From Nanobdellota archaeon (GTDB lineage: Archaea > Nanobdellota > Nanobdellia > JAAOXT01): a stretch of 64,000 nt of DNA. Location of the stretch: the NCBI GenBank assembly GCA_018221045.1, contig JAAOXT010000017.1, forward strand, positions 6,356 to 70,355, given 5' to 3'. Below, piece by piece: positions 2,101-51,550 of the stretch. Position numbers and translations under genes: made by a program. How positions within the stretch are numbered: the first letter of the stretch is position 1; every line of letters starts with the position of its first letter. The notes beneath the pieces were generated by a model. It had not been told where the DNA came from and searched no databases. It was given only the letters and a program-made list of their open reading frames with translations.

Positions 2101-2244
2101 TGCGGGGGACGGGATTCGAACCCGCGAAGACACTAAGTCACAGGGTTTCTTCCAAAACCAGTTTTTCCGTCAACGCTTTTGGAGCGTTAGCGAGAAAAGG
2201 GTTGGTCTTAAGCCCTGCCCCTTTGACCACTTGGGAACCCCCGC
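2101..2244 (-). tRNA. tRNA-Leu(UAA) with an intron of about 60 nt at the canonical 37/38 position
   Basis: Hand-folded on the minus strand. The acceptor GCGGGGG pairs with CCCCCGC, and the discriminator is A. The T-arm is GCGGG-TTCGAAT-CCCGT. The long class-II variable arm is TGACTTAGTGTCTTC. The anticodon stem CAGGG/CCCTG carries the loop CUUAAG|intron|A, giving anticodon UAA. Confidence 0.8.
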
Positions 2245-2321: not shown

Positions 2322-2810
2322 TTAAACCCAATCATAAGCGTCTTTAGACATAATCTCATTGATTAAGTAATGGTGAACTGTTTTATTTGAACTTGGCGGT
2401 TTCTCTGATGTTTTGACGCCCAGGTCATTAAGGGTTACGTGAAGAACTTCGTGCTCAAGGCCCATAACAAGAATGGAAAGAACTGCTCTTTTAAGAGTTT
2501 CTTCTCTCAAAGTTTTCACTTCTTCTTCTGAAAGATCTGAAAGCAAACCTTCCTTTCCTTTAAAACAAGTTTTAACCATTTTTCTGCTCTCTTCATAAAC
2601 CCTTGGCATGCTCATAATTGCTTGCTTAAAATAAACATCTGCAAATCCGCAACCCCTACCGCTTTTTATAAGTCCATCAAACAAGCCTTTTTCAAAATAA
2701 GAAAAATCCCGAAAACACTTGGAAGTGTATTCTGCGAGCGCATTTATTCTAAGATTATCCATTCTCTTAATGAAGTATTCATCTGGATGAATAAGCAAAT
2801 CTGTTTCCAC
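2322..2810 (-). CDS. hypothetical protein
   Basis: 162-aa ORF immediately upstream of tRNA-Leu on the same strand. No recognisable motif. Confidence 0.4.
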   Translation of the reverse strand: METDLLIHPDEYFIKRMDNLRINALAEYTSKCFRDFSYFEKGLFDGLIKSGRGCGFADVYFKQAIMSMPRVYEESRKMVKTCFKGKEGLLSDLSEEEVKTLREETLKRAVLSILVMGLEHEVLHVTLNDLGVKTSEKPPSSNKTVHHYLINEIMSKDAYDWV

Positions 2811-2842
2811 AACAATAACTGACTTGGAAAGGGTTTAAAAAA

Positions 2843-3346
2843 TTATTTGTTAATAGTCCACTTTTTAAATTCCTTAAGACTTAAACTCATCAATGCCTTG
2901 GCGTCATCCCATTTAACAAACTTTGGAAACTCTTCTGGACTCACAAACTTTCTTTCGAACAAAACACGAGTCGCTGGGTCGACACGCACATCCTTAACCC
3001 CTGATATCAGGCAGGCAAACCTTGCCTGGTAATAATGTTTTCCTTCATTCTTGTTCGGATTACCTGGAAAAAATATTTCAGAAAAACCTAACAAAGAAGC
3101 TTTTGAAAGCTTAACACTCGCTTCCTCCCAAACTTCTCTCCTAACAACCTGTTCTAACTCCTCATTTTCTTCAGGGTGCCCGCCGGGCAAATGCCACTTC
3201 CCATCAGCCCCCCTTACTATGAGGATTTTTCCTTTAGAGGTGAAACAAATGCTGGAAACCTGGGTTATCGGGCCATCATTTCTTCGTTCTTTTACCCATA
3301 GCACGGTTATCTTTTTACCTTTCCACTCTCTAACAAACTTTTCCAT
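2843..3346 (-). CDS. NUDIX hydrolase
   Basis: Nudix box 'GGHPEENEELEQVVRREVWEEASV' matches GX5EX7REUXEEXGU. Confidence 0.8.
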   Translation of the reverse strand: MEKFVREWKGKKITVLWVKERRNDGPITQVSSICFTSKGKILIVRGADGKWHLPGGHPEENEELEQVVRREVWEEASVKLSKASLLGFSEIFFPGNPNKNEGKHYYQARFACLISGVKDVRVDPATRVLFERKFVSPEEFPKFVKWDDAKALMSLSLKEFKKWTINK

Positions 3347-5214: not shown

Positions 5215-6345
5215 ATGAATAAACAGCTTCCGGAAATGAAGGTTGAATTGTTAGGTTACTCGATGATGGGTTTGGCGGGGCCTGATGAGATAATCGCGAC
5301 AATCAAACAATTGGAAACTAATGACAGACTTGAAACAATTGACTCCGAATTAGTCAAAGGATTAGTGGATGGTATTGAGTCAAGGGATAAGATTCTTGAC
5401 GGCGTCGCGTTCACTTTCGGGATTGAAAACATTAGCCGAGTCTCTGAAATTCATGAAATCAGGCATCGCACGGCTTCTTATTCCATTCAATCAGGCAGGT
5501 ACGTGGACAGGACGGGCAAAGTCGGGGTCATGCCCGACACCATTAAAAACGATGATGAAGCGCAGAAACTTGTTGAAGAAGCGGAAACAGACTCTTTATA
5601 CTCCAAACTATTGAAATTAGGTATTCCAGAGCAGGACGCGCGATATTACTCCTTCCAAAACACGCCAACATACATTGTTCAGACCATGACTGCGCGCTCA
5701 CTATTACACTTCTTCAAGGAAAGACTTTGCAACAAAGCCCAAGACGAGATTCACGGATTAGCTCTCAAAAAACTTGACCTGGCGAGTCAAGTCGCGCCGT
5801 TGCTGATGAGCAAAGCAGGTCCTCACTGCAAGGGTAAAGGTTGCAGGCAAAGAAAATCTTGCGAACCGGAAAAAAGAGAAGAATTGTTTAGAACTATTGA
5901 CCAATATTTCGAGCCTGAAATCAAGCCAAAAGTTTTCAGGGTTCCTGAAGGCCCTTTACTGGCTTACACTCGCTTAACAGCTGACTTTTTAGCCAGTCCT
6001 GAAGTGTTATGCGCTGCCGCCGGCAAAGGATGTTATTCTTCAAAACCTGCCGGAGAGATAATCCAGGATTACTTGGGTGGCGAGCCGTACAAAAAAACTT
6101 TGAAAACAATTGTCGTGTCTGGTCATGAAAGTGTTATCGAACACGCACACTTCGCTTTCGAGATTGATGTGGAAGAATTCTTGGATAACCCTCCCTGGAT
6201 TCACTCTTATGACAAAAAAGCAGGGGTTGTTTTCTTGAACGCTAGGAGCGTTAACGAGTACTTAGAATCTAACCCTGGAAAACGCACGAGTCAAATCATT
6301 GAAAGAGAAGTGAAGAGAATTGCTCCAAGACTTCTTAGAAAGTGA
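5215..6345 (+). CDS. thyX: FAD-dependent thymidylate synthase ThyX, atypical long form with a C-terminal partial second ThyX domain
   Basis: The ThyX signature 'RHRTASYSIQSGRY' (RHRxxSxxxxSxR) and the helix 'TARSLLHFFKERL' lie in residues 1-210. Residues about 295-350 carry 'SGHESVIEHAHFAFEI' and 'LNARSVNEYL', the ThyX N-terminal HExxEH-FTF motif. Confidence 0.75.
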   Translation: MNKQLPEMKVELLGYSMMGLAGPDEIIATIKQLETNDRLETIDSELVKGLVDGIESRDKILDGVAFTFGIENISRVSEIHEIRHRTASYSIQSGRYVDRTGKVGVMPDTIKNDDEAQKLVEEAETDSLYSKLLKLGIPEQDARYYSFQNTPTYIVQTMTARSLLHFFKERLCNKAQDEIHGLALKKLDLASQVAPLLMSKAGPHCKGKGCRQRKSCEPEKREELFRTIDQYFEPEIKPKVFRVPEGPLLAYTRLTADFLASPEVLCAAAGKGCYSSKPAGEIIQDYLGGEPYKKTLKTIVVSGHESVIEHAHFAFEIDVEEFLDNPPWIHSYDKKAGVVFLNARSVNEYLESNPGKRTSQIIEREVKRIAPRLLRK

Positions 6346-6982
6346 TTAAGTGATCGTAGTTTTTTTGGATGATTGCTTGTTTTATTTCAATTGCCGGCTC
6401 GTCCGCCATTAGCACTTTTACCAAGTCGCTTTTGTCAATTTTGGATTTTATTTTTTCTTTTTCAATAATCTTGAATCCGACGCCGAACTCTTTTGAGTAG
6501 TCCCTAATCTCGTTGGATACCGTGCCTAAAACAGTGTGTTCTTGTCCGAGCAGTGTTATTTCATGACGGGCTTGAAGTATTTCTTCTGGTTCAAGATTTG
6601 ATGCAGTGAAATAGCGAATGCCTTCAACACTGAAGTTGGGATTACTGAAAATCATTTCGTTAAATAGTTTGATTAAAAGTTTTTGAGCGGAGAACAGGGA
6701 AGGGTTTGTGTAAAACATTTCTGCTTCGAGAACGCTTTCGACTTTGCAGTCGAAGAACGTGAATGATGCTCTGTCTTCAACTCTTATTTTATCTCTTTCT
6801 CCTTCAATTTTTTGGAATTCTATTTTTGGCCGGTTGTGAGTCGTGTAGGGAAAATTGTTTACGAGTCTGTTCCTAAAATCAAACAATCTTTTCGCGTATT
6901 CTTCTGACCCAGGATATTTTCTCAAGTCAAATCTTTCTGGCAAGTAGGAACCTTGTTCGAGTCGAGCGAATACTAACCTCAT
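6335..6982 (-). CDS. hypothetical protein
   Basis: 215-aa ORF with no recognisable motif. Confidence 0.4.
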   Translation of the reverse strand: MRLVFARLEQGSYLPERFDLRKYPGSEEYAKRLFDFRNRLVNNFPYTTHNRPKIEFQKIEGERDKIRVEDRASFTFFDCKVESVLEAEMFYTNPSLFSAQKLLIKLFNEMIFSNPNFSVEGIRYFTASNLEPEEILQARHEITLLGQEHTVLGTVSNEIRDYSKEFGVGFKIIEKEKIKSKIDKSDLVKVLMADEPAIEIKQAIIQKNYDHLITF

Positions 6983-9018: not shown

Positions 9019-9151
9019 TACACCCTCAACTCACCAGAGTTTTTTCACTATATGGAAACAATCCTCAGAATAACCGCTGTCCACAAACTTCGGAGAATTC
9101 AACCCACCCAAAAAGATAATTATTATTAATCCATACTTTCTTTTTTTATTA

Positions 9152-9985
9152 GTGATTTTCAACGCGCACACCCATTACATCCTTCCAGGCAATTCGTGCT
9201 GGATTAGTGATTATAGAAAGATTACTCACGGGTTTTGGAAGCAACAACTAATAGATAATGGCGTGGTTGGCGCGTTAGCAATGTATTGTCCGCCAACATT
9301 GCCTTTCCCTAAAACCAATTTATTCGAAGAAAACAAAGAGATATGGAAGGCGTTAAAAAAAGATGATAGCCTAATTTGGGTTCCTTTTGCAATGCTCAGC
9401 CCTTCACAAAACACTCCTGAACAGTTAAAGAGCTTGGTCAAAAATCATGGTTTCAAAGGGTTAAAGCTCATATCCGTTTTTGATAATAAAGCGTACGACC
9501 CGGAGAGAGATGGAGGTTTATTGATGATGGCCAAAGAACTTAAGATTCCTACAATGATTCACTCAGGGTGGAGGGAGGTCGCGGGTTTGGAAAAAATCAA
9601 AAAGAACATCGAGGCTTTCCCAGATCAGACTTACGTTATCGCGCACATGCGCCCTAACGAGAAAGGATGTCCTAAATCCCATTTATTCTTGTTAAAAGAT
9701 TTTATGGAACGAGGTATAAAAGTTTTCGGCGAGTTGAGTTATGTTGACCATCCGAATCGAGTGTTTGACGCCGTCCAAATGAGTCTTGAAAACAGGTTAT
9801 TATGGGGTGATGACTTGCCTTGGGGCGGGGCTAACACTTACACCAATTTAGCGAAAGTTGTTTGTGCACCAATAAATCAAGAGTCCAAGAATAAAATTCT
9901 TTACGAGAACGCTGTAAAACTTTTTAAGCTTGAGAAAGTCCTCTCCAGGAACAGAATACTTGGCGAACAAGAAAGAAATAAATAA
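9152..9985 (+). CDS. metal-dependent amidohydrolase (amidohydrolase-2/TIM-barrel family)
   Basis: 277 aa with an N-terminal 'NAHTHY' metal-binding HxH-like motif and a C-terminal 'WGDDLPW' motif. Confidence 0.45.
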   Translation: MIFNAHTHYILPGNSCWISDYRKITHGFWKQQLIDNGVVGALAMYCPPTLPFPKTNLFEENKEIWKALKKDDSLIWVPFAMLSPSQNTPEQLKSLVKNHGFKGLKLISVFDNKAYDPERDGGLLMMAKELKIPTMIHSGWREVAGLEKIKKNIEAFPDQTYVIAHMRPNEKGCPKSHLFLLKDFMERGIKVFGELSYVDHPNRVFDAVQMSLENRLLWGDDLPWGGANTYTNLAKVVCAPINQESKNKILYENAVKLFKLEKVLSRNRILGEQERNK

Positions 9986-10012
9986 TGCGTCTCAATTATT
10001 ATTAATGATTAA

Positions 10013-10498
10013 ATGAAAGAACATAAAAGGCCGGGCTGGGATGAGTACTTTATGGGCATTGTTCGAGAAGTTGCTAAGCGAGCCACCTGTGACCGCGGAA
10101 GGAACTCTGCAATAATCGTGAAGAACAAGCGAATCATCGCTACTGGTTATGTCGGCGCCCCCGTAGGTTTAAACCATTGTGATGAAGTTGGGCACTTGAT
10201 TAAAGAGGTTTACGACGAGGACGGCAACGTTAAGAAACATTGTGTTCGCACCACCCACGCGGAGCAGAACGCTATTGCTCAAGCAGCGAGGTTCGGGGTG
10301 AGCATTGATGGAGGCACGATTTATACTAAAATGGAACCCTGCTTGGACTGCACCAAACTCTTAATCAACGCGGGGATTAAAAGGGTGGTGGCTGAGAAGC
10401 TCTATCACGACGGAGAGTTAAGTAGACGGTTCTTAAAGGACGCAGGAGTCAAGCTAGTAGTGTTGAACGAAGAAGTGGAGGAGTACAAAGAACAGTAA
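10013..10498 (+). CDS. dCMP deaminase (cytidine/deoxycytidylate deaminase zinc-binding family)
   Basis: Zinc ligand motifs 'HAEQNAI' and 'PCLDCTKLLINAGIKRVV'. Confidence 0.8.
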   Translation: MKEHKRPGWDEYFMGIVREVAKRATCDRGRNSAIIVKNKRIIATGYVGAPVGLNHCDEVGHLIKEVYDEDGNVKKHCVRTTHAEQNAIAQAARFGVSIDGGTIYTKMEPCLDCTKLLINAGIKRVVAEKLYHDGELSRRFLKDAGVKLVVLNEEVEEYKEQ

Positions 10499-10547
10499 AA
10501 GAAAACCGAAACCTTTTTCGCTAGTTCTTAACTATCTTTACCTTAAA

Positions 10548-11093
10548 ATGAATGGTGTAAAAGTGCAGAACATTGTCGCATCCGTGAACCTGTTCGCCTC
10601 CCTCATAAATTTGGAAAAACTTGCAAAAAATCTTGATAACGTAACTTACGATCCGTCAAGGTTTCCTGGTGCGTGCCTCAAACTGAAAGACCCGAAAGTC
10701 TCTATTCTCATCTTCACTTCAGGTAAAATCGTGGTTTCCGGGTCGAAAACAGAGGAAGACATGCATTCCGCTATAAAAAAGGTCAAGAAAAAGCTTAGAA
10801 AACTAGGGGTCAGATTCAAAAAAAGTTATGACGCGAAGATACAGAACGTTGTCGCGTCCGGCGACGTGGGTTTTAAGATTAACTTGAACAAGCTGGCGTT
10901 CAAGGCTGAAGACACTGAGTACAACCCGGAACAATTTCCTGGCCTAGTGCACAAGCCTTCAGGCTCAAACCTAAGTTTTCTTTTGTTCAACACGGGTAAA
11001 ATCGTGTGCACTGGAGCGAAAAGCAAAAAAGAGATTGTTAATGGTAGAAGAAAGCTTGTGGCTTACTTGAAATCCTTAGGGTTTCATAAATAA
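10548..11093 (+). CDS. tbp: TATA-box binding protein
   Basis: Two TBP repeats: 'QNIVASVNL...FPGACLKLKDPKVSILIFTSGKIVVSGSK' and 'IQNVVASGDV...FPGLVHKPSGSNLSFLLFNTGKIVCTGAKS'. Confidence 0.9.
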   Translation: MNGVKVQNIVASVNLFASLINLEKLAKNLDNVTYDPSRFPGACLKLKDPKVSILIFTSGKIVVSGSKTEEDMHSAIKKVKKKLRKLGVRFKKSYDAKIQNVVASGDVGFKINLNKLAFKAEDTEYNPEQFPGLVHKPSGSNLSFLLFNTGKIVCTGAKSKKEIVNGRRKLVAYLKSLGFHK

Positions 11094-11149
11094 TTAAATG
11101 CTCTGATAGGAATTGAGAAGTTGCATTCAGTCAAAAAAACGGGATTTCT

Positions 11150-11458
11150 ATGGCGAACTCCAGAAAAAAAAGTTCGTTAAGTTTAAAAAAGGCTTTACTC
11201 CTTAATGAAAGCATGGCAAAAATAACAAATACAAATGTTAAAACAGGAATTGTTAAAGACATGAGAAATACTTACGGGTTCATCACACCTGACGAAGGTG
11301 AAAAAGACATATTTGTTCATGAAAGTAACTCAAAAGAACGTCTTAGTAAAGGAGACAAAGTTGAATTCGAAATAGAACAAGCACCAAAAGGACCTAGAGC
11401 AATAAACGTAAAAAAAATTAAAAACGAAAACGTGAAAAAAGCAAGCAAAGAAGAATAA
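11150..11458 (+). CDS. cold-shock domain protein
   Basis: The CSD core 'KTGIVKDMRNTYGFITPDEGEKDIFVHES...GDKVEFEIEQAPKGPRAINV' is present. The start may instead be the internal ATG at 11213. Confidence 0.6.
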   Translation: MANSRKKSSLSLKKALLLNESMAKITNTNVKTGIVKDMRNTYGFITPDEGEKDIFVHESNSKERLSKGDKVEFEIEQAPKGPRAINVKKIKNENVKKASKEE

Positions 11459-11538
11459 GAAAGAAAGAACACTTTCTTTTGAATATCCTAACAAAAATCT
11501 TTAACTTTTTTTTATTATTAGACATTACACTTAGTGCC

Positions 11539-11570
11539 GGGGTGTAGATAGAACTCGAAACCGCTGAATT
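11539..11570. repeat. left copy of a 32-bp inverted repeat pair (GGGGTGTAGATAGAACTCGAAACCGCTGAATT)
   Basis: It matches the reverse complement of 14411-14442 at 29 of 32 positions. It lies 80 nt downstream of csp and at the far end of the four-gene minus-strand cassette. Confidence 0.75.
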
Positions 11571-11692
11571 TGGAACATTGGATTTTCAATTAGTTTTTTT
11601 ATTCATCCTATTCTACCAGTCCACTTTAAGAATAAAATAAGGATAAAAATCAAAAAATTCTTCAAAGAATTAGTAAAAAAGATAAGTTGACC

Positions 11693-11977
11693 TTAAGCCA
11701 ATGACTTAAGGTAAGAAAGAACAGCGCTCTGACTTTTAATCTCGTTACCGAAATCCTGAATCCCAGGGCCCATTACAAACCTTTGAGACAAGTTCTCAAA
11801 AACTCTTAATTCACCTGTAAAAATTTTCTCAAACTTTTCAACAAGTTTATACAAATCTTTTTTAGGAAAAGAGCCAACGTCCTTCAAATCAATCAAACTT
11901 CCATCCAAACTAATCTGAGAAGGAATGACTCCAAACCTTGTTTCAATAAAATTTTCCATAACTAAATTCACCTCCAA
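11693..11977 (-). CDS. hypothetical protein (cassette gene D)
   Basis: 94-aa ORF, the last gene of the co-oriented cassette. Low GC and CpG-poor. Confidence 0.4.
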   Translation of the reverse strand: MEVNLVMENFIETRFGVIPSQISLDGSLIDLKDVGSFPKKDLYKLVEKFEKIFTGELRVFENLSQRFVMGPGIQDFGNEIKSQSAVLSYLKSLA

Positions 11978-12354
11978 GTAAACAAAAAAAACTTTCCAAG
12001 ATAAAACAGGAAAATTATTTCAAAATCAAAAACGTCTTTAAAACAACACTTTTTTTTTCTTAATTGTTCTTAAATACATAAAACGACCCCCTACTTTTAA
12101 GCTTTTTGATTTGCTTCCATCAGGATTGGGAGCAAAACAAGACGAAAATACTGCAACTAAAACCTCGTGAACTAACGCGTTATAACGTTTCTCAAAGAAC
12201 GTTTTGGGATGTTAAAAACAAGATAAAAGAGGGAAAGGATGGGAAGATAAGGGAAAACACGAAAAAAAAGATTTTGAACTTTATTGTATCTTACCAAAGC
12301 AGCCAGAAAAAATCTCTTACGCCAAAGGATTATTAGTTTTTAAAAGACTCATTT

Positions 12355-13173
12355 TCAAGTGGTTTTTTTGGATCTTCTTTTTTCTACGAATAATCTTGAT
12401 ATAGGGTCATAAGGATATGTGCCTTTTCCTTTAGTTATTATTTTTCCAGAAGTCATTCCTTTTCCTATATGGCCTCCCACATTCCCAAGGACATGTATTG
12501 TTCCTCCTCGCATTTCTTTTCCTAAGAAGTCTCCAGTGTCGCCTTTGATTATTATTTGTCCGCCTCTCATCCATTTCCCGGCCGTTCCACCTACGCTTCC
12601 GTTAACAAGGATTTCTCCGTCCCGCATCTCGCTTCCCAGGTTTTCTCCAGTGTTTCCTTCAATGATAAGTTCTCCATCACACATTTTTGAACCTGCGAAT
12701 GCTCCTGCATTTCCTTCAACAACCATTCTTCCTCCTTGAAGCATGTGATACCCTGCCCGGCTTCCAACGTCGCCCTCAACTGTCAAAGTTTTTTCTGTTA
12801 GAAAACATCCTAAGTGTCGTATTCCTGTTAGTTCGTTGTCGCATTTGTTTTGCATTCCTGGAATTTTGATTTCGTCTTCTGGAATGGTTTTCATCATTGC
12901 TGACAAAAAGATACCATCTACTCCTTTGAAGTCTTTTTTTTCACAGAATGAGTATAAAACATCGTTGTCAATCTTGAGTTCAGAGTCAACTAAAAGTAAT
13001 TGAGCGTAAAAAAAATCTCCTTTATGTGATTGGAAGGGAGAAGGAAAAGCATAACTCATTAATTCTTGAAATAAGGGTTGAAGAGGTTTTTTTAATCCAG
13101 GTAATGAATATTCTCCTCCTATACTTGTGTTTGTTCTCCATGTTTCAAGTATTTTTTCGAGTTTCGTAATCAT
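12355..13173 (-). CDS. GXGXXG-repeat beta-helix protein (GltB C-terminal domain / FwdC-like)
   Basis: At least five tandem repeats of the form G-x2-G-x2-G-x-x-M-x-x-G-x-I/L-x-V/I-x-G, for example 'GNAGAFAGSKMCDGELIIEGNTGENLGSEMRDGEILVNGSVGGTAGKWMRGGQIIIKGDTGDFLGKEMRGGTIHVLG'. This is diagnostic of the glutamate synthase alpha-subunit C-terminal/FwdC domain. The N-terminal 120 aa are unrelated. Confidence 0.75.
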   Translation of the reverse strand: MITKLEKILETWRTNTSIGGEYSLPGLKKPLQPLFQELMSYAFPSPFQSHKGDFFYAQLLLVDSELKIDNDVLYSFCEKKDFKGVDGIFLSAMMKTIPEDEIKIPGMQNKCDNELTGIRHLGCFLTEKTLTVEGDVGSRAGYHMLQGGRMVVEGNAGAFAGSKMCDGELIIEGNTGENLGSEMRDGEILVNGSVGGTAGKWMRGGQIIIKGDTGDFLGKEMRGGTIHVLGNVGGHIGKGMTSGKIITKGKGTYPYDPISRLFVEKRRSKKTT

Positions 13174-13277
13174 TGAACTTTGAAAAAAGAGATTCAGGTT
13201 TTAAAACCTTTCCCAAATAAAAAAATCAGATGTTTCTATAAAGTATATTTTAAATTAGTAGTTATAAAACGAAAGAT

Positions 13278-13613
13278 TTACTCTTTTACAGCCAGACCTC
13301 TTACTGAACGATCTTGCGGATGAATGAATGCTAATACGTCTCTTCCAACTAAATCGTCTATACTGTCAACATTCATTTCTTCCATAAATAGCGCAAATAC
13401 TTCTTCTCCAATTAACCAATAATGTCTGAAACTCCCTCTTAAACCTTTTCCAGATTCTTGCAATCCCATCTGCACGACATCTTCATCACCATAGGACTTT
13501 TCCGCTACTTCTGCAGATTCAATTATAAATTGACTTCCGACAGTTCCAACTGGAAGACCAAGATCTTCAAATTTGTATTTTCCAAAACTTTGATATATAT
13601 TCATTTTATTCAC
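13278..13613 (-). CDS. hypothetical protein (cassette gene B), translationally coupled to the upstream gene by an ATGA overlap
   Basis: 111-aa ORF. Its start overlaps the stop of 13610..14320. Confidence 0.45.
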   Translation of the reverse strand: MNKMNIYQSFGKYKFEDLGLPVGTVGSQFIIESAEVAEKSYGDEDVVQMGLQESGKGLRGSFRHYWLIGEEVFALFMEEMNVDSIDDLVGRDVLAFIHPQDRSVRGLAVKE

Positions 13614-14320
13614 TTCGATTTTGACTTAAAAAGTTCTAAAGTAACGTCATATAAAGTTTTTCCTTCTATAATATCTAAGTAAGCTACAGATAGACGTTGA
13701 TCACCAATTGTGGCAATTATATTTTCTCTGCCAGATGTTGATAATGATAATGATCCAATGACTCCTTCAAAGGTTTCGCCATTATACAAGCCCCCATATT
13801 TTTCGTTACTTTTCACTTTCATTCCAGCTCTCCAAATTCCATGTTTTGAGCTATAAACTTCTTGTAAATCTTTTTTTAAATCATAAGCGCCTTCACACTT
13901 TCCCCCAAACTTAAATGAACAGTTATGACAGAGTTTTATATATCTCGCAATTGTTTCACCTTCTAATTCATGGGCAGCAATGAAAAGGTTTTGAATCTCT
14001 TCTTGACTTCTATTTATTTTTTGAAGACCTGTTCTATCAGCAGTTATCCTTTCGTATACATGCATTTTTTTATAATACTCTTCCATATCATTATATTGAC
14101 AATGATCTGGAAGTAATTTCTCTAAAAGTCCAGGGTAATGTGGTGACATAAAAGAATAACTATCAAGAGATTTGTCTATAGCTTCGCAAAGCTGCTTTTT
14201 CTCATGGTTTTTGCGGTCAGATTCAGACATTTTAGGTTCCAAAACTTGTGGTTCAGATTTAGATCTTCCAAACAATTTTTTGAGTCGTTCTTTCATTAGA
14301 AGCTTCAAACCAAAACCCAT
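13610..14320 (-). CDS. hypothetical protein (cassette gene A). It has a weak, unverified resemblance to the class-II (Ntn) glutamine amidotransferase segment 'GxxxxSTSG'.
   Basis: 236-aa ORF, the first gene of the cassette. It contains 'CHNCSFKFGGKCEGAY' and 'VIGSLSLSTSGRENI'. Composition is low GC and CpG-depleted. Confidence 0.45.
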   Translation of the reverse strand: MGFGLKLLMKERLKKLFGRSKSEPQVLEPKMSESDRKNHEKKQLCEAIDKSLDSYSFMSPHYPGLLEKLLPDHCQYNDMEEYYKKMHVYERITADRTGLQKINRSQEEIQNLFIAAHELEGETIARYIKLCHNCSFKFGGKCEGAYDLKKDLQEVYSSKHGIWRAGMKVKSNEKYGGLYNGETFEGVIGSLSLSTSGRENIIATIGDQRLSVAYLDIIEGKTLYDVTLELFKSKSK

Positions 14321-14334
14321 TTATAAGGTTTTCG

Positions 14335-14348
14335 CTACTGTTCAGTAG
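14335..14348. promoter_or_regulatory. 6-2-6 perfect palindrome CTACTGttCAGTAG in the promoter region of cassette gene A
   Basis: Seen directly in the sequence. It lies between the right IR and the gene A start at 14320, and its form is typical of a dimeric wHTH operator. Confidence 0.3.
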
Positions 14349-14410
14349 TGTTTTCTTAAAGGTTTTTGGATCACTCTTTGAATTGAATCAAGAACACTAA
14401 TTTTTTCTAT

Positions 14411-14442
14411 AATTCAGCGGTTTCGACATCTATCTATACCCC
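14411..14442. repeat. right copy of the 32-bp inverted repeat (plus strand AATTCAGCGGTTTCGACATCTATCTATACCCC)
   Basis: Reverse complement of 11539-11570 with three mismatches. It sits 10 nt from the 3' end of tRNA-Glu and 90 nt upstream of cassette gene A. Confidence 0.75.
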
Positions 14443-14452
14443 TTAATCTCTA

Positions 14453-14576
14453 TGCCCCTGCCGGGATTTGAACCCGGGTCACAAGCTATCTCCAAACTTT
14501 TGGTTTTTTGATTAAACTTTTTTTCTAAAAAGTTTATGAGAGGCTTGCATGCTTGGCCGAACTACACTACAGGAGC
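14453..14576 (-). tRNA. tRNA-Glu(CUC) with an intron of about 48 nt
   Basis: Hand-folded on the minus strand. The acceptor GCTCCTG pairs with CAGGGGC, including one G-U pair. The D-arm GTGTAGTTCGGCCAAGCAT closely resembles archaeal tRNA-Glu. The anticodon stem CAAGC/GCTTG carries the loop CUCUCA|intron|A, giving anticodon CUC. The T-arm is CCGGG-TTCAAAT-CCCGG. Confidence 0.7.
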
Positions 14577-14658: not shown

Positions 14659-15528
14659 ATGAAAATTGGTTTCGTGGGAGCGGGAAGGGTTGGCAAAAGT
14701 CTAGCGTTCCTGTTCAAAAGAGCCAAGCACGAAGTAATCGGGGTTTACAGCAGAACCCAAAACTCGTGCAACGAGTTCACAAAGTTTGTTGGCAACGGCA
14801 AAACCTTCGAGAACCTAAAAGAACTGGCAAAAGAATGCGAAGTCGTGTTCATCACGACCAACGACGACTCCATACAACAAGTCTGCGAGGGTTTAAGCCC
14901 ATACTTGTCCAGCGAACAGTTCGTGTTCCACTGCAGCGGACTACTAACCACCCAAGCCCTCACTTCAGCGAAAGCAAAAGGCTGCGAGGTCGGCGCCATG
15001 CACCCAATACAAAGCATTCCGAACCCGCACTACGGCATCATGAACCTTCCCCACTCATACTTCGACATCCAGTGCAGTCCAGGAGCCGAATTAGTGGCTG
15101 AAAGACTTGTCAAAGACTTGAAATGCACTCCCATCAAAATCCTACCAGAAGAAAAAGTTTACAACCACTTAGCGTCATGCATGGTTTCAAACTATCAAGT
15201 ATCCTTATTTGACGCGGCCCTAAAACTATACGAAAACACGAGCATAAGCAAAGACTTGGCTTCACAAATGCTCTCCCACTTATCAAAACAGACAGTCATA
15301 AACCTCGAGAACCTCGGACCGTTACGCGCCCTAACCGGACCCATAATGAGAGGTGATGTTGGAACAGTCAAAAAACACTTGAAAAGCATAAAAGACGATA
15401 ACGTGATGATCCTATACCAAAAAGTTGGATTAATACTCCTAAAACTTGCGGAACAAAGAGGCAGAATAAAGAAAAAGCAAGCCGAACAAATCAAAAACTT
15501 GCTCGAAAACACCGATAAACACGGCTAA
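14659..15528 (+). CDS. NAD(P)-binding Rossmann-fold oxidoreductase (ProC/F420-oxidoreductase-like, DUF2520-type)
   Basis: The N-terminal 'MKIGFVGAGRVGKSLA' is a dinucleotide-binding GxGxxG motif. The protein is 289 aa. Confidence 0.5.
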   Translation: MKIGFVGAGRVGKSLAFLFKRAKHEVIGVYSRTQNSCNEFTKFVGNGKTFENLKELAKECEVVFITTNDDSIQQVCEGLSPYLSSEQFVFHCSGLLTTQALTSAKAKGCEVGAMHPIQSIPNPHYGIMNLPHSYFDIQCSPGAELVAERLVKDLKCTPIKILPEEKVYNHLASCMVSNYQVSLFDAALKLYENTSISKDLASQMLSHLSKQTVINLENLGPLRALTGPIMRGDVGTVKKHLKSIKDDNVMILYQKVGLILLKLAEQRGRIKKKQAEQIKNLLENTDKHG

Positions 15529-48394: not shown

Positions 48395-49051
48395 TTATTG
48401 TTTTTTTTTAGTTATTTCTAAACTTAAATTCTTAGCGAATTTTTGATTATGAAATGATTTAAGAACTGCGAAACCTTCGTTCTTCAACTGAGTCTTAAGT
48501 TCCTTAAGCGAAAATAAGTGATAATACCTCTTATAAACCTTTCCTTCGTGCTTCCAGCCCACGTAAAACACTTTTTTCCCAGGATATTCTGAAAAACGGG
48601 GTTGCTCAGGGTTCCAAGCCATCACCAGGCTTCTAGACTTTTTTTTCAGCACTCGCTTAACCTCTTTCCAAGGTGGTTTCTTGAAATGGTTCATCACTGA
48701 AATCATTAAAGCTCCTTTGAAAGAATCGTTTTTGAACGGCAGTGCCTGAAGGTCCGCGACTATCACCAAGTCATGTTTTTGTTTGGCCAATAAGGCCATT
48801 TGCTTTGAGAAGTCAATTGCAACGAACTTGTATTTTTTGAGTGCTGGAAAGTTTCTTCCGCTACCGCAACCCAAATCAATGAACCATTGTTTGGTCCTGA
48901 ACGTTTTAACGAATTCCTTGACTTCTGGCAAGGGGTTGGTTCTAAAAACGTTCCAAGCACTCGCTATAGCGTCGTAAACAGGTCTAAGGTCTTGCATGTG
49001 AACACTTTTTTGACATTGATTTGTTATAAAATCTTTCATTATAACAAACAT
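48395..49051 (-). CDS. class I SAM-dependent methyltransferase
   Basis: SAM-binding motif I 'FIDLGCGSGRN' and motif II 'DLVIVADLQ' are present. Confidence 0.7.
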   Translation of the reverse strand: MFVIMKDFITNQCQKSVHMQDLRPVYDAIASAWNVFRTNPLPEVKEFVKTFRTKQWFIDLGCGSGRNFPALKKYKFVAIDFSKQMALLAKQKHDLVIVADLQALPFKNDSFKGALMISVMNHFKKPPWKEVKRVLKKKSRSLVMAWNPEQPRFSEYPGKKVFYVGWKHEGKVYKRYYHLFSLKELKTQLKNEGFAVLKSFHNQKFAKNLSLEITKKKQ

Positions 49052-49081
49052 TTTTTAATCATGTGTCTCTTGGTTAAGCTC

Positions 49082-51550
49082 ATGAGGTTTTACGCTGATT
49101 TTCACTTGCACTCCAAGTACAGTCGGGCCTGCTCTCATGTCATGGACATTCCTCATCTCGTAAAGTACGGGAAGATGAAGGGATTGAACCTTTACGGAAC
49201 TGGTGACTTCACGCACCCGCAATGGTTTGAGCATTTGAAGGAAACACTGCAAGGCGGGGAAAACGGCATTTACGAAAGGGATGGCGTTAAGTTCGTGGTT
49301 AGCGGAGAAATCTCGCTCATTTACTCCCAAGGAGGTAAGGTTAGAAAAAATCATTTGCTAGTCATTCTTCCCTCGCTTGGCGCGGCAAGCCAAGTTAGGG
49401 ACATGCTCGGAAAAATAGGGAATTTGAAAGCTGATGGCCGACCGATTCTCGGCATGAACTCAATAGACTTCACTGAGAAAATCATTGAACTCGTGCCTGA
49501 CGCCATGATAGTGCCGGCACACTGTCTACCTGACTCGGAAAACATACTTACTGATATAGGTGTTCAATCAATAAAAAAAATAAGTAAAGGAAATAAAGTA
49601 CTATCTCACTCAGGGAGATTTCGTAAAGTTATTGACGTGTTTAAGAGAAAATATACAGGAAAATTAAAACACATAATCCCGTTCTATTTCACAATAGGCG
49701 TAAAGACTACTCCTGAACACCCTTTCTTAGCTATCAAGACTTATAAAAAATGTTCGTGGACGAAAGGCACCTGTAGAGAAAAGTGTTCTAAACTTAAAGA
49801 GTGCAAGAACAAATATTATTTAGAATACAAACCAGAATGGATCCCTTGCAAAGAATTAGAGGTTGGAGATGTCATTCTCTTTCCCAGAATTACGAAGATA
49901 AAGGATAAAAAAATAATTAAAATAAGTGATACCTCTCCAGGCATTGTAAAAAATGATAAAATAAGATTAGATAATTCAAATGCAAAATCAATAAATAATG
50001 TCATACGCGTTGATACTGATTTCTGTAGGTTTATCGGGTATTTCTTAGCAGAAGGCTCTATAATGAAAGACGGCATTTCATTAACGTTTAGTGCTAAAGA
50101 AAAAGAATACATCAAAGACGTTGAATTATTAATAAAGAAAATTTTCGGGATTGAAATAAATAAAAAACGAATTAAAGGAAATAGTTGTGAAATAATTATT
50201 TTCTCTAAAGTTTTAAAAAAATTTTTACACAAATTACTTTACAAAAATGGGCAAAAATCACCTAATAAAAGTTTACCTCATGAATTAATCCTTTTACCCT
50301 ATAATAAAATAAAACAAATTTTTCTCGGCTGGTGGCGGGGCGATAAAGGATATACCTCCTCAAGGGAACTAGCTAATGCTATGAAACTTATCTGCCTAAA
50401 ATTAGGTATAATACCTTCCATTAGAATTGACACAGCAGAAGCTCACACGAAAAGAGGCAATCACTTGTTTGAAGGAAGAATTATTGAAGCAAAACAGGAT
50501 TCACTGTATTTTAGTAACCTTTCTTTTCACGAAGAGTCACTAGATTTATTAGAAGAACCAATATTCCAAAAATTCAAAACAAAAAGAAACACGCGACACG
50601 GTTGGGTTGACACTAATCATGTTTACTTGCCAATACTTAAGATACAAGACGAAGATTTCAATGGATTTGTCTACAACCTAGAAGTGGAAAAAGATAACTC
50701 TTATTGTAGCGAATTTGCTTGTGTTCATAACTGCTGGACGCCATGGTTTAGCATGTTCGGGAGCATGAGCGGGTTTGACTCCATGAAAGATTGTTTTCAG
50801 GACCAGTTGAAGCACGTTTTCGCCGTGGAGACCGGGTTAAGCTCGGACCCTGCGATGAACTGGCGAGTCAAACAACTCGACAACATGACGTTACTCTCAA
50901 ATTCGGATGCTCATAGTCCTTGGCCTCACCGGGTTGGCAGGGAAGCCAACGTTTTCGATTTCAAAGACTTGACTTATCAATCGTTATACAACGCTATTAA
51001 GCGCAAAGACCGTGAAAAGTTTTTGTTCACTATCGAGACAGACCCTGCTTACGGCAAGTATCATTGGGACGGGCACAGAGGTTGCGGCGTGTCAATGCCC
51101 CCCGCCGAGTCTAAGAAGTTGAATAAGATTTGCCCGAAGTGTCATTCCAGATTAACTATCGGGGTGGAGCATAGGGTTGAAGAGTTGGCGGACCGTCCGG
51201 AGGGCTTCAAGCTTGAAGGAGCAATTCCTTTCAGAAATTTACTGCCTTTGGCGGAAATCATTTCCAAAGCGATAGGTAAAGGCGTGGGCACGAAAACTGT
51301 TTGGAGTGCTTACGAGAAAGCTGTTCGCGAACTAGGAGTGGAGTACGGGATACTGTTAGATGTTCCGGAGAATGAGTTGTCTAAGGTTTTGGGTGATGAT
51401 GTGGCAAAAGCGGTTTTGATGGTTCGCGAGAACAAAGTTCAAATCAAGCCGGGTTTTGATGGGGTTTATGGGGAAGCTGATTTCGGACAAAAACACGAGA
51501 AAACTGTTCCTTCAAAACCCGTGCAGAAAGGGTTAAACACCTGGCTCTAA
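49082..51550 (+). CDS. PHP-domain nuclease (EndoQ-like, TIGR00375-type) interrupted by an intein. The exteins are 49082-49522 and 50732-51550.
   Basis: The extein start 'MRFYADFHLHSKYSRACS' is the PHP metal-binding motif. The C-terminal 'KICPKCHSRL' is a zinc ribbon. The exteins total about 420 aa, matching EndoQ-type proteins. The track ORF begins further upstream, but the ATG at 49082 (or 49061) is the plausible start. Confidence 0.65.
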   Translation: MRFYADFHLHSKYSRACSHVMDIPHLVKYGKMKGLNLYGTGDFTHPQWFEHLKETLQGGENGIYERDGVKFVVSGEISLIYSQGGKVRKNHLLVILPSLGAASQVRDMLGKIGNLKADGRPILGMNSIDFTEKIIELVPDAMIVPAHCLPDSENILTDIGVQSIKKISKGNKVLSHSGRFRKVIDVFKRKYTGKLKHIIPFYFTIGVKTTPEHPFLAIKTYKKCSWTKGTCREKCSKLKECKNKYYLEYKPEWIPCKELEVGDVILFPRITKIKDKKIIKISDTSPGIVKNDKIRLDNSNAKSINNVIRVDTDFCRFIGYFLAEGSIMKDGISLTFSAKEKEYIKDVELLIKKIFGIEINKKRIKGNSCEIIIFSKVLKKFLHKLLYKNGQKSPNKSLPHELILLPYNKIKQIFLGWWRGDKGYTSSRELANAMKLICLKLGIIPSIRIDTAEAHTKRGNHLFEGRIIEAKQDSLYFSNLSFHEESLDLLEEPIFQKFKTKRNTRHGWVDTNHVYLPILKIQDEDFNGFVYNLEVEKDNSYCSEFACVHNCWTPWFSMFGSMSGFDSMKDCFQDQLKHVFAVETGLSSDPAMNWRVKQLDNMTLLSNSDAHSPWPHRVGREANVFDFKDLTYQSLYNAIKRKDREKFLFTIETDPAYGKYHWDGHRGCGVSMPPAESKKLNKICPKCHSRLTIGVEHRVEELADRPEGFKLEGAIPFRNLLPLAEIISKAIGKGVGTKTVWSAYEKAVRELGVEYGILLDVPENELSKVLGDDVAKAVLMVRENKVQIKPGFDGVYGEADFGQKHEKTVPSKPVQKGLNTWL
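49523..50731 (+). mobile_element. intein (403 aa) with a LAGLIDADG homing endonuclease domain
   Basis: It starts 'CLPDSENI' (block A). 'TPEHPF' is block B. The LAGLIDADG motifs are 'FIGYFLAEGS' and 'LGWWRGDKGY'. It ends 'FACVHN', followed by extein 'CWTPWF' (block G His-Asn plus a +1 Cys). GC is about 30%, versus about 45% in the flanking exteins. Confidence 0.85.

Follow-up and report, generated by a model that had tools for sequence, protein, structure and literature searches.

An inverted 32-bp repeat beside an archaeal tRNA-Glu gene: a candidate footprint of local inversion in a strain-variable islet

Introduction

Inversions in prokaryotic genomes are usually ascribed to pre-existing repeats or to recombinases. 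In Hin/Gin-type systems and bacterial invertons, segments of a few kilobases lie between short inverted repeats. We know of few descriptions of a breakpoint-duplication footprint in prokaryotes, and the staggered-break model is, to our knowledge, documented in eukaryotes and not in prokaryotes. In Drosophila chromosomes, the inverted-duplication footprint is already well documented: inversion breakpoints carry inverted duplications, which are explained by staggered breaks (PMC1885836). The Drosophila inversions are megabase chromosomal rearrangements (PMC1885836), whereas the segment considered here covers ~2.9 kb of an archaeal genome.

The segment lies in a 64-kb stretch of DNA, the whole of which we analysed and call the window, from a DPANN (Nanoarchaeota) metagenome-assembled genome (MAG). 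A preliminary description of the window, made from its sequence alone, had noted four genes bracketed by inverted repeats next to tRNA-Glu and had read them as a relic or non-autonomous mobile cassette, or as a recombination or regulatory module delimited by the repeats. Here we report the structure of the locus, its comparison with a sister genome, and the explanations that these results favour.

Results

A 32-bp inverted repeat encloses four genes of atypical composition

The inverted repeat is present as described. Its arms, d_L and d_R, are identical at 29 of 32 positions, with a longest common exact run of 16 nt, and are separated by 2840 nt. The four co-oriented genes that had been claimed between the arms are borne out as ORFs, all on the minus strand, and the reported palindrome and intron-containing tRNA-Glu are likewise in place:

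11539-11570, plus strand: d_L, left arm of the 32-bp inverted repeat, GGGGTGTAGATAGAACTCGAAACCGCTGAATT
11693-11959, minus strand: GOU97_02575 (gene 4), 88 aa from ATG 11959; the ORF spans 11693-11977
12355-13173, minus strand: GOU97_02580, stand-alone 272-aa FwdC-like GXGXG beta-helix protein
13278-13613, minus strand: 111-aa ORF with in-frame coding score, overlapping the upstream gene by 4 nt
13610-14296, minus strand: GOU97_02590, 228-aa orphan protein (NCBI start ATG 14296; alternative ATG 14320, giving 236 aa)
14321-14327: TATA-like TTATAAA, ~28 nt from the ATG at 14296
14335-14348, no strand: palindrome CTACTGttCAGTAG, just upstream of TTATAAA
14411-14442, minus strand: d_R, right arm of the 32-bp inverted repeat, GGGGTATAGATAGATGTCGAAACCGCTGAATT
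14453-14576, minus strand: tRNA-Glu(CUC), with a 49-nt intron at 14488-14536 (position 37/38), its 3' end separated from d_R by a 10-nt gap

The similarity of the arms ends sharply at 32 nt, as alignments of both the inner and the outer flanks scored no better than shuffles. We found no target-site duplication outside the arms, a feature that the preliminary description had proposed to look for: the outer flanks (...TTAGTGCC on the left, TTAATCTC... on the right) have no direct repeat in common. Two matches to the 32-mer were reached in none of 100 dinucleotide shuffles, and the window contains no third copy, even when up to 9 mismatches are allowed. Pattern scans of three public collections (GTDB genomes, JGI metagenomes and IMG/VR) gave 0 matches, and no additional copies occur near other tRNA genes; two partial matches (13/16) near tRNA-Cys both lie within coding sequence. 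The 32-mer was thus not seen elsewhere in the sequences scanned, either as further repeat copies of the kind proposed for checking or as the generic genome-wide repeat that had been named as the counter-explanation.

The interval also has the low GC and CpG depletion attributed to it. Its GC content (11539-14442) is 0.342, against 0.411 +/- 0.024 in 2.3-kb windows; within the 64 kb, every one of the lowest-GC windows begins at 10.9-12.3 kb. CpG observed/expected is 0.76-0.77 against 0.96, and the GC3 of the four genes is 0.22-0.33, compared with 0.47 +/- 0.06 for 38 long ORFs. Positions 12129-14410 have a GC of 0.349, and the three genes there a GC3 of 0.22-0.29; the 88-aa gene, at 0.33, is also atypical. 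The interval is therefore moderately atypical at the DNA level and strongly so at third codon positions.

The interval is rich in orphan genes. The sole match of the 228-aa protein among 1.84 billion representative proteins is itself, and the 111-aa ORF has no family match and no PDB match. The palindrome is a putative operator. In agreement with the preliminary description, Pfam, PHROGs, NCBIfam and PADLOC revealed no integrase or transposase between the arms. Similarly, no recombinase or transposase was found among the ORFs tested across the 64-kb window, no integrase within 10 kb on either side of the interval, and no Cas1 inside or near it.

The 272-aa protein resembles FwdC (TIGR03122/PF01493 GXGXG) in carrying a GXGXG beta-helix at residues 112-250, which match PF01493 with E = 3.9e-13. 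The match to TIGR03122 is confined to the same residues and, at 114.6 bits, falls below the cutoff of 130.65, while the N-terminal 110 aa are unrelated to FwdC and matched nothing. The nearest relatives (37-46% identity over half the length of the protein) are located in fwd operons, whereas no fwdA, fwdB or fwdD lies near the 272-aa gene. Because of the sub-cutoff score, the unrelated N-terminus and the lack of fwdABD neighbours, we rejected the assignment of this protein as a formylmethanofuran dehydrogenase subunit.

The sister genome carries one repeat copy and an inverted neighbouring block

We found one close relative, L001, at ~95% nucleotide identity; the next TBP relatives are ~60% identical and lack synteny. 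The locus comparison accordingly involves two genomes and no outgroup. The L001 sequence compared amounts to 20.5 kb, and its contig is represented in two samples or records. The correspondence between the window and L001 is as follows:

9118-11515: L001 6643-9042
11516-11538: junction stretch of 23 nt from the csp-side end of clean homology to d_L, aligning weakly to L001
11539-12128: inverted block common to L001 (d_L, the 88-aa gene and the upstream region of that gene), 590 bp, L001 9833 down to 9241, 97% identity (blastn, junction alignments)
12129-14410: window-only block, 2,282 bp, three genes, absent from L001
14411-14487: L001 9802-9878
14537 onward: L001 9879 onward

Since L001 carries the block beside d_L in the opposite orientation, the arms coincide with recombination breakpoints, the left of which is placed to within ~23 nt. 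To this extent the suggestion of recombination delimited by the repeats holds, but the comparison does not support the arms as termini of a unitary cassette. In L001 the 32-mer occurs exactly once (9802-9833), flanked by the 88-aa gene block on one side and, at 10 nt, by tRNA-Glu on the other, and a second copy is absent from the 20.5 kb at up to 9 mismatches. The inner flank of this single copy is orthologous to the inner flank of d_L (TGGAACATTGG...), and its outer flank to that of d_R (the 10-nt spacer and tRNA-Glu). Because L001 keeps one copy 10 nt from tRNA-Glu together with the inverted 88-aa gene, the 32-mer appears to be native, single-copy sequence downstream of tRNA-Glu, which would have been duplicated in the window lineage or lost once in the other.

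The remainder of the segment is not collinear: 12129-14410 has no counterpart in L001, and ~170-200 nt of unrelated L001 sequence in its place has no counterpart in the window. A second event is therefore required. The idea that a single four-gene cassette was inserted as one piece is not supported, as L001 retains a 32-mer and the inverted 88-aa gene and lacks only 12129-14410. What survives of the mobile-cassette proposal is that the DNA beside the tRNA is flexible and foreign-looking, with three of the four genes strain-specific; these three are absent from L001, so conserved four-gene synteny, which would have spoken against foreign DNA, is not seen. A clean empty site, in which tRNA-Glu would be followed directly by csp, was looked for in L001 and is not present there. 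The 88-aa protein is intact in both genomes, with 3 amino-acid differences, and its 90%-identity cluster has these two members only.

The tRNA gene itself also differs between the genomes. The window tRNA-Glu(CUC) was missed by ARAGORN and, at gathering score, by Rfam, yet its exons are identical to a tRNA-Glu(ctc) called by ARAGORN in the relative, where the gene is uninterrupted; the intron is absent from the orthologues in both L001/L029 and L002, and the L002 contig stops inside the gene. Within ~3 kb, the window and L001 thus differ in three respects: an inversion, a 2.3-kb orphan-gene block, and an intron that the tRNA gene has in one and lacks in the other. A direct repeat of the tRNA 3' part gave no match in the window; the best in L001, CTAGTGCTCCTGCCG beside csp, has 14 identities in 15 columns including one gap, a score equalled by 63 of 300 shuffles.

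No evidence of constraint on the 32-mer

The arms and the L001 copy record some of the history of the 32-mer. Both arms have G19 and G28, the L001 copy has C19 and T28, and each arm carries private changes as well; at position 6 the L001 copy is like d_R, and at position 15 like d_L. The 32-mer differs from L001 at 4 of 32 positions, and it shows no sign of constraint because 11-14% of all 32-nt windows in the comparison of the two genomes show as many differences. The difference between the arms (3/32) is at least as large as the between-genome divergence (~1.5 expected per 32 nt), and for this reason the duplication does not clearly postdate the strain split. For the 32-mer and its surroundings, Rfam 15 had no match at gathering score and no credible one when E was relaxed to 10, and the 32-mer fold is no more stable than shuffles (z of -0.9 to -1.1). 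Nothing indicates a function for the 32-mer itself.

Discussion

A local inversion in a flexible islet

Our results lead us to propose, with a probability of roughly 0.5, that the locus is a strain-variable islet between csp and tRNA-Glu, and that the 32-bp repeats are the footprint of a local inversion rather than cassette termini. In this model, the whole csp-to-tRNA interval would have inverted in a single event. The break on the tRNA side would have been staggered by 32 bp, or replaced by an equivalent replicative template switch, and fill-in would then have produced two oppositely oriented copies of the 32 bp, one at each end of the inverted segment. The predicted ancestral order is csp > 228-aa > 111-aa > 272-aa > 88-aa gene > 32-mer < tRNA-Glu. 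In a second, independent event, the 2.28-kb block of the window and the ~170-200 nt of unrelated DNA of the relative would have been exchanged, in either direction. Exchanges of this kind are usual in flexible islets. The three genes confined to the window are probably cargo acquired by horizontal transfer, and would be transcribed from their own putative TATA-like promoter.

The arrangement observed is that the 88-aa block is flipped against csp with one 32-mer, the other copy lies beside the tRNA, and the 2.28-kb block sits between. A single 32-mer in L001 with the inner flank of d_L and the outer flank of d_R is the topology expected from breakpoint duplication, A-d'-(inverted segment)-d-B, and G19 and G28 in both arms, together with their private changes, fit a duplication in the window lineage followed by drift. 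Further support for inversion comes from the sharp 32-nt ends, the lack of a target-site duplication, the lack of a recombinase in the interval and among the ORFs tested across the window, and a 32-mer that gives no sign of constraint and has no further copy in the sequences scanned; a foreign origin of the 2.28-kb block is supported by its low GC3, the self-only match of the 228-aa protein and the at most 46% identity of the relatives of the 272-aa protein. Against inversion stand the restriction to two genomes with no outgroup, the fact that L001 is not a simple un-inverted form, such that at least two events are needed, and the arm divergence of 3/32, by which the duplication is not clearly younger than the strain split. 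That the csp-side boundaries of both events fall within ~23 nt of each other is a mild coincidence. We know of no enzymatic basis in archaea for a 32-nt stagger.

Alternative explanations

The same arm divergence would also fit a modified form of the preliminary reading, in which the window holds a complete but decayed foreign element that ends in 32-bp inverted repeats and entered 10 nt downstream of tRNA-Glu, and in which a flip between the terminal repeats in the relative was followed by loss of one repeat and the three genes through deletion or replacement. The arms bracket all four low-GC3 genes, including the 88-aa gene (GC3 0.33), the position next to a tRNA fits, and a repeat-to-repeat flip yields exactly the right junction of L001 (88-aa block, 32-mer, tRNA), whose 32-mer can be read as a chimera, like d_R at position 6 and like d_L at position 15. 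We nevertheless consider such an element unlikely. It would lack a target-site duplication and any transposase, integrase or Cas1 inside or nearby; neither its 32-mer nor any of its genes has a second copy in the collections searched, and no empty site is known. In addition, insertion, flip and replacement make one event more than the inversion and exchange proposed above, and the origin of the repeats is left unexplained.

A programmed switch, in which a recombinase flips the 2.8-kb segment and so alters which genes lie downstream of csp or tRNA-Glu, would have the geometry of known invertible segments, with short inverted repeats around a few kilobases, and would account for the opposite orientation of the adjacent block in a 95%-identical genome. 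It appears improbable, as no recombinase gene lies next to the segment or among the tested ORFs of the window, the relative has one arm only and hence does not represent the same switch in its flipped state, and the arms (3/32 from each other, 4/32 from the relative) are not conserved beyond neutral expectation. Moreover, a flip would switch no promoter or split coding sequence, because every gene keeps its own upstream region. A more speculative version, in which the arms are recombination sites of an unrecognised archaeal invertible or mobile module, the 228- or 111-aa orphan is its recombinase and L001 is a decayed flipped copy, strikes us as a long shot.

We give still less credence to a role for the 32-mer as a small functional element, for example an RNA motif, a protein-binding site or a signal for termination or processing, retained in two copies because it is needed after both csp and tRNA-Glu. 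Each copy does lie downstream of a transcribed gene and in its orientation (csp for d_L; tRNA-Glu, at a distance of 10 nt, for d_R), and the tRNA-proximal copy is kept in the relative; but Rfam (E up to 10) and fold stability (z of -0.9 to -1.1) give no hint of a motif, conservation does not exceed the intergenic background, no copies occur near other tRNA genes, and a single copy suffices in the relative. Finally, an assembly or binning artefact, in the form of a chimeric join in either MAG contig, is hardly credible: both sequences are metagenome-assembled and the break of the L002 contig within tRNA-Glu hints at a region difficult for assemblers, but the arms differ at three positions, their 16-nt identical run is too short to mislead assemblers (k of at least 21), at every junction the flanks run on into intact genes on either side, and the L001 contig was found in two samples or records.

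Implications and comparison with known systems

If the inversion model is correct, the locus offers a clean, small natural archaeal example of an inversion that duplicates its own breakpoint sequence. A DPANN pair of ~95% identity that differs in this way within ~3 kb is also useful for the study of gene gain and loss in tiny genomes. In addition, the locus serves as a warning that inverted repeats around odd genes by a tRNA are not, alone, evidence of a mobile element; here, comparison with a single close relative was enough to reveal the supposed cassette as composite.

The locus resembles tRNA-adjacent flexible islets and islands in being a strain-specific, low-GC and low-GC3, orphan-rich interval immediately downstream of a tRNA gene, and in varying between ~95%-identical genomes. 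It differs from integrase-mediated islands, with their direct repeats of the tRNA 3' end, in that no integrase is present and its repeats, besides being inverted, do not overlap the tRNA. With TIR transposons and MITE-like elements it shares ~30-bp inverted repeats at the ends of a few-kilobase segment, and with some casposons its closeness to a tRNA gene; unlike these elements, it has no target-site duplication, transposase or Cas1 and no other copies in the sequences scanned, and, unlike a TIR element, it is neither precisely present in nor precisely absent from L001, where one arm and the 88-aa gene remain in inverted orientation. Similarly, Hin/Gin/Cin segments and tyrosine-recombinase invertons have short inverted repeats around ~3 kb and part of the segment in both orientations among close relatives, but here no recombinase lies nearby, the second site is missing from L001, there is no evident promoter or coding switch, and the sites are unconserved. 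From the staggered-break or 'isochromatid' inversions of Drosophila (Ranz et al. 2007, PMC1885836) the locus departs in having a duplication at one breakpoint only, and a block replacement in the comparison genome. As in those inversions, the breakpoint sequence is single-copy in the other arrangement, its copies lie at both ends of the segment, inverted and sharply bounded, each keeping one original flank, and no transposable element or pre-existing repeat is required (PMC1885836).

The inverted repeat and the tRNA-Glu gene beside it

The preliminary description placed two near-identical 32-nt sequences in inverted orientation around four genes, next to a tRNA gene with an intron. We found both arms at those positions, identical at 29 of 32 nucleotides; no shuffle of the window yielded two such matches. 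The right arm adjoins the tRNA-Glu gene across a 10-nt spacer.

Repeat arms and adjoining tRNA gene
11539-11570, + strand: left arm, GGGGTGTAGATAGAACTCGAAACCGCTGAATT
14411-14442, - strand: right arm, GGGGTATAGATAGATGTCGAAACCGCTGAATT
14453-14576, - strand: tRNA-Glu(CUC), with a 49-nt intron (14488-14536) at the canonical 37/38 position
32-mer: GGGGTNTAGATAGANNTCNAAACCGCTNAATT

Similarity between the arms stops abruptly at 32 nt: when aligned, neither the inner nor the outer flanks scored above shuffled sequence, and a longer homology hinted at by a MAFFT alignment was rejected as not significant against shuffles. No third copy was detected in the 64-kb window in a search with up to 9 substitutions, and partial matches (13/16) near tRNA-Cys lie within coding sequence. 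Pattern scans of GTDB genomes, JGI metagenomes and IMG/VR returned 0 matches; because the first pattern mismatched the variant in L001, the contig of the sole close relative found, and the JGI set evidently lacked that contig, these scans do not amount to a genome-wide test. A weak match (23/32) at L001 6466-6497 falls within a coding ORF, in a segment (L001 5969-6642) that differs from the window; its significance is borderline (~0.05-0.08 expected, by our own estimate), and we take it as probably due to chance.

It is unlikely that the 32-mer is a functional RNA or DNA motif. As a C/D-box sRNA, tRNA half or other Rfam family it was rejected: Rfam gave no match, its fold is not unusual (no better than shuffles), and inspection revealed no canonical C box. 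Its anatomy, two copies only, 2.8 kb apart and without a repeat array, fits neither a replication-origin ORB element nor a CRISPR repeat, and we noticed no orc1/cdc6 gene close by. Furthermore, its conservation is at the ordinary intergenic level: 4 of 32 positions differ from L001, and 11-14% of 32-nt windows differ as much.

The tRNA-Glu(CUC) gene of the window was missed by ARAGORN and Rfam because of its intron. Its pre-tRNA folds well, and its exons show no difference from the intron-less tRNA-Glu(ctc) called by ARAGORN in the ~95%-identical relative (L029 11775-11849, the same record as L001). The gene also lacks an intron in L002 (1-63), the contig of a more distant, 72%-identical relative, with near-identical exons. 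As read from these alignments, the intron is a strain-level gain or loss adjoining the rearranged interval. A second intron-bearing tRNA, probably tRNA-Leu(UAA) (anticodon loop CUUAAGA), lies at 2101-2244 (-) and at about 1760-1960 of L029; the exons are identical, and the window intron is 42 nt shorter and mostly different in sequence.

Composition and gene content of the interval

As had been noticed, the interval between the arms is low in GC (0.342 versus 0.411 +/- 0.024) and depleted in CpG (observed/expected 0.76-0.77 versus 0.96); no other part of the window has a lower GC. The deviation is much stronger at third codon positions than in overall GC: GC3 is 0.22, 0.23, 0.29 and 0.33 in the four genes, versus 0.47 +/- 0.06 in 38 long ORFs. 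All four minus-strand ORFs are present, and each scores as coding in its own frame. A neighbouring TBP gene shows that the genome is archaeal.

GOU97_02580, encoded on a 75-kb contig of a 'Nanoarchaeota archaeon' MAG, has the same sequence as the 272-aa protein, which contains a GXGXG beta-helix (PF01493, E = 3.9e-13). Its likeness to FwdC is confined to residues 112-250 and scores under the curated cutoff. Its nearest relatives, 37-46% identical over half the length, are located in fwdD/B/A operons, whereas the window gene stands alone. The 228/236-aa protein, one gene with two candidate ATGs, matched only itself among 1.84 billion representative proteins. The 111-aa protein had no match in Pfam, PHROGs, NCBIfam, PADLOC or PDB sequences. 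The 88-aa protein had no credible match in the first four and none in PDB; two weak PHROG matches were to families without known function (E = 0.007 and 0.09), and at 90% identity it clusters only with its counterpart in the relative. Single-sequence structure models of two orphans, built without alignments, were unusable (pLDDT 37 and 46).

Nothing related to the interval was detected in IMG/VR, INPHARED or PLSDB, nor did PHROGs or PADLOC point to a viral, plasmid or defence origin. The reported lack of a recombinase inside was borne out, the interval matching no integrase, transposase or invertase family; nor were any detected in the relative's gene table within 10 kb on each side, or among the tested ORFs of at least 110 aa in the rest of the window.

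The palindrome described at 14335-14348 (CTACTGttCAGTAG) is present and lies directly upstream of a TATA-like TTATAAA (14321-14327; read from the sequence), which is ~28 nt from ATG 14296, the start codon of the NCBI annotation. This arrangement suggests that the mRNA lacks a leader and that an operator site may be present. Beside tRNA-Glu, at 14659-15528 (+), lies a gene for a Rossmann/DUF2520 protein with only two archaeal-looking relatives (98% and 66% identity); the other homologues with names come from bacteria such as Clostridia and Dehalococcoidia (~28-36% identity), which points to an old transfer of the gene between domains, into this DPANN lineage.

Comparison with the sister genome

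The 98%-identical DUF2520 homologue led us to L001 ('Ca. Parvarchaeota archaeon Meg19_1012_Bin_507', JAFCDO010000008.1; also recorded as L003 and L029). Window 332-23265 aligns collinearly with this contig; identity is ~95.6% for coding and 94.0% for intergenic sequence.

Correspondence around the repeats
Window 9118-11515: L001 6643-9042, with weaker similarity on to ~11537
Window 11539-12128: L001 9833 down to 9241, inverted, 97%
Window 14411-14487: L001 9802-9878
Window 14537 onward: L001 9879 onward
L001 single 32-mer, tRNA strand: GGGGTATAGATAGAATTCCAAACCGCTTAATT

In L001 the order is csp, ~170-200 nt of unique DNA, the 88-aa gene (+), a single 32-mer, a 10-nt spacer and tRNA-Glu. In the window it is csp, 32-mer, the 88-aa gene (-), 2,282 nt with three genes (-), 32-mer, 10-nt spacer and tRNA-Glu. 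The inner flank of the L001 32-mer (TGGAACATTGG...) is common to the left arm of the window, and its outer flank, spacer and tRNA, to the right arm. The four genes had been taken for one cassette; this does not hold, as the 88-aa gene, its promoter region and a 32-mer occur in both genomes and 12129-14410 is window-only. The empty site predicted for a relative, tRNA-Glu followed directly by csp, was therefore not found either; instead, the comparison revealed one native repeat copy, a shared block in inverted orientation and a strain-specific block.

The unique stretch of L001 is unrelated to the window-only block. We rejected the idea that it is left over from that block or from a second arm, since the resemblances, a shared MGFG start (236-aa ORF and a short L001 ORF; by inspection) and a GGGGT.T.GA likeness to the repeat, are within chance. 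An att candidate beside csp in L001, a direct repeat of the tRNA 3' end that would have spoken for an integrase-type island, was not significant.

At positions 19 and 28 the arms agree with each other against L001, and each also has private changes. Their own divergence, 3 of 32 positions, is no smaller than that of the two genomes, and the duplication is therefore not demonstrably younger than the strain split. No outgroup was obtained: the next TBP relatives (~60% identity) lack synteny, the L002 contig starts inside the tRNA gene, and exact-protein look-ups of window proteins returned no further contigs. The locus occurs in two genomes only, and each change could have run in either direction.

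The two genomes differ elsewhere as well. Window 2469-3293, an 825-nt stretch bounded by an imperfect 9-nt direct repeat, (G/A)CCCATA(A/G)C (by eye), is missing from the relative, which has one 251-aa ORF versus two (162 and 167 aa) in the window; this looks like a microhomology deletion fusing two genes, or the reverse. Where L001 has 5969-6642 the window has 9038-9118: a 213-aa ORF of the relative (L001 5945-6586, -), between the YjbQ and amidohydrolase genes, is represented in the window by a 77-nt remnant only, a further indel. At 48887-51550 (+) the window encodes an 887-aa ORF with an intein, including a LAGLIDADG homing-endonuclease domain (PF14528, E = 4.4e-10) and Intein_splicing (E = 3.2e-07, a score under its cutoff); Pfam did not identify the host protein.

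A proposed inversion scar in a flexible islet

The topology is A-d'-(inverted segment)-d-B, and the other genome has a single d, at the breakpoint; this is the layout that an inversion duplicating one breakpoint sequence would leave. In the simplest history, which would comprise two events, the entire interval between csp and the tRNA inverted, with 32 bp duplicated at the break on the tRNA side, and the 2.28-kb block was exchanged against the short unique stretch of L001. Exchanges of the latter type are common in flexible islets. This history fits the states that the arms share against L001 and their private changes, the ordinary conservation of the 32-mer, its lack of an Rfam match or unusual fold, and the lack of other copies in the available sequence. 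For inverted duplications at Drosophila inversion breakpoints, the explanation offered is that staggered breaks were filled in (PMC1885836). The same product would arise from a replicative template switch.

The main rival is a foreign element with 32-bp terminal repeats that inserted beside the tRNA, was flipped by recombination between its two ends and then decayed in L001. Such an element would account for the odd composition of all four genes, but it needs one event more and comes without a target-site duplication, a transposase, other copies or an empty site. To the residual novel reading, in which an orphan gene encodes a recombinase acting on the 32-mer, we give only an outside chance. 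A programmed inverton is unlikely: we found no recombinase among the ORFs tested and no promoter that a flip would switch, and L001 lacks a second site. An assembly artefact is likewise unlikely.

In its behaviour the locus resembles a flexible genomic islet beside a tRNA gene, with the scar of an inversion in addition. It is the outcome of known kinds of genome change and not a new kind of element. Of the three features of breakpoint-duplicating inversions it shows two, while simple collinearity is broken by the additional block exchange. By the tests for those classes it does not pass as a transposon or MITE, an integrase-type island, an inverton or a casposon.
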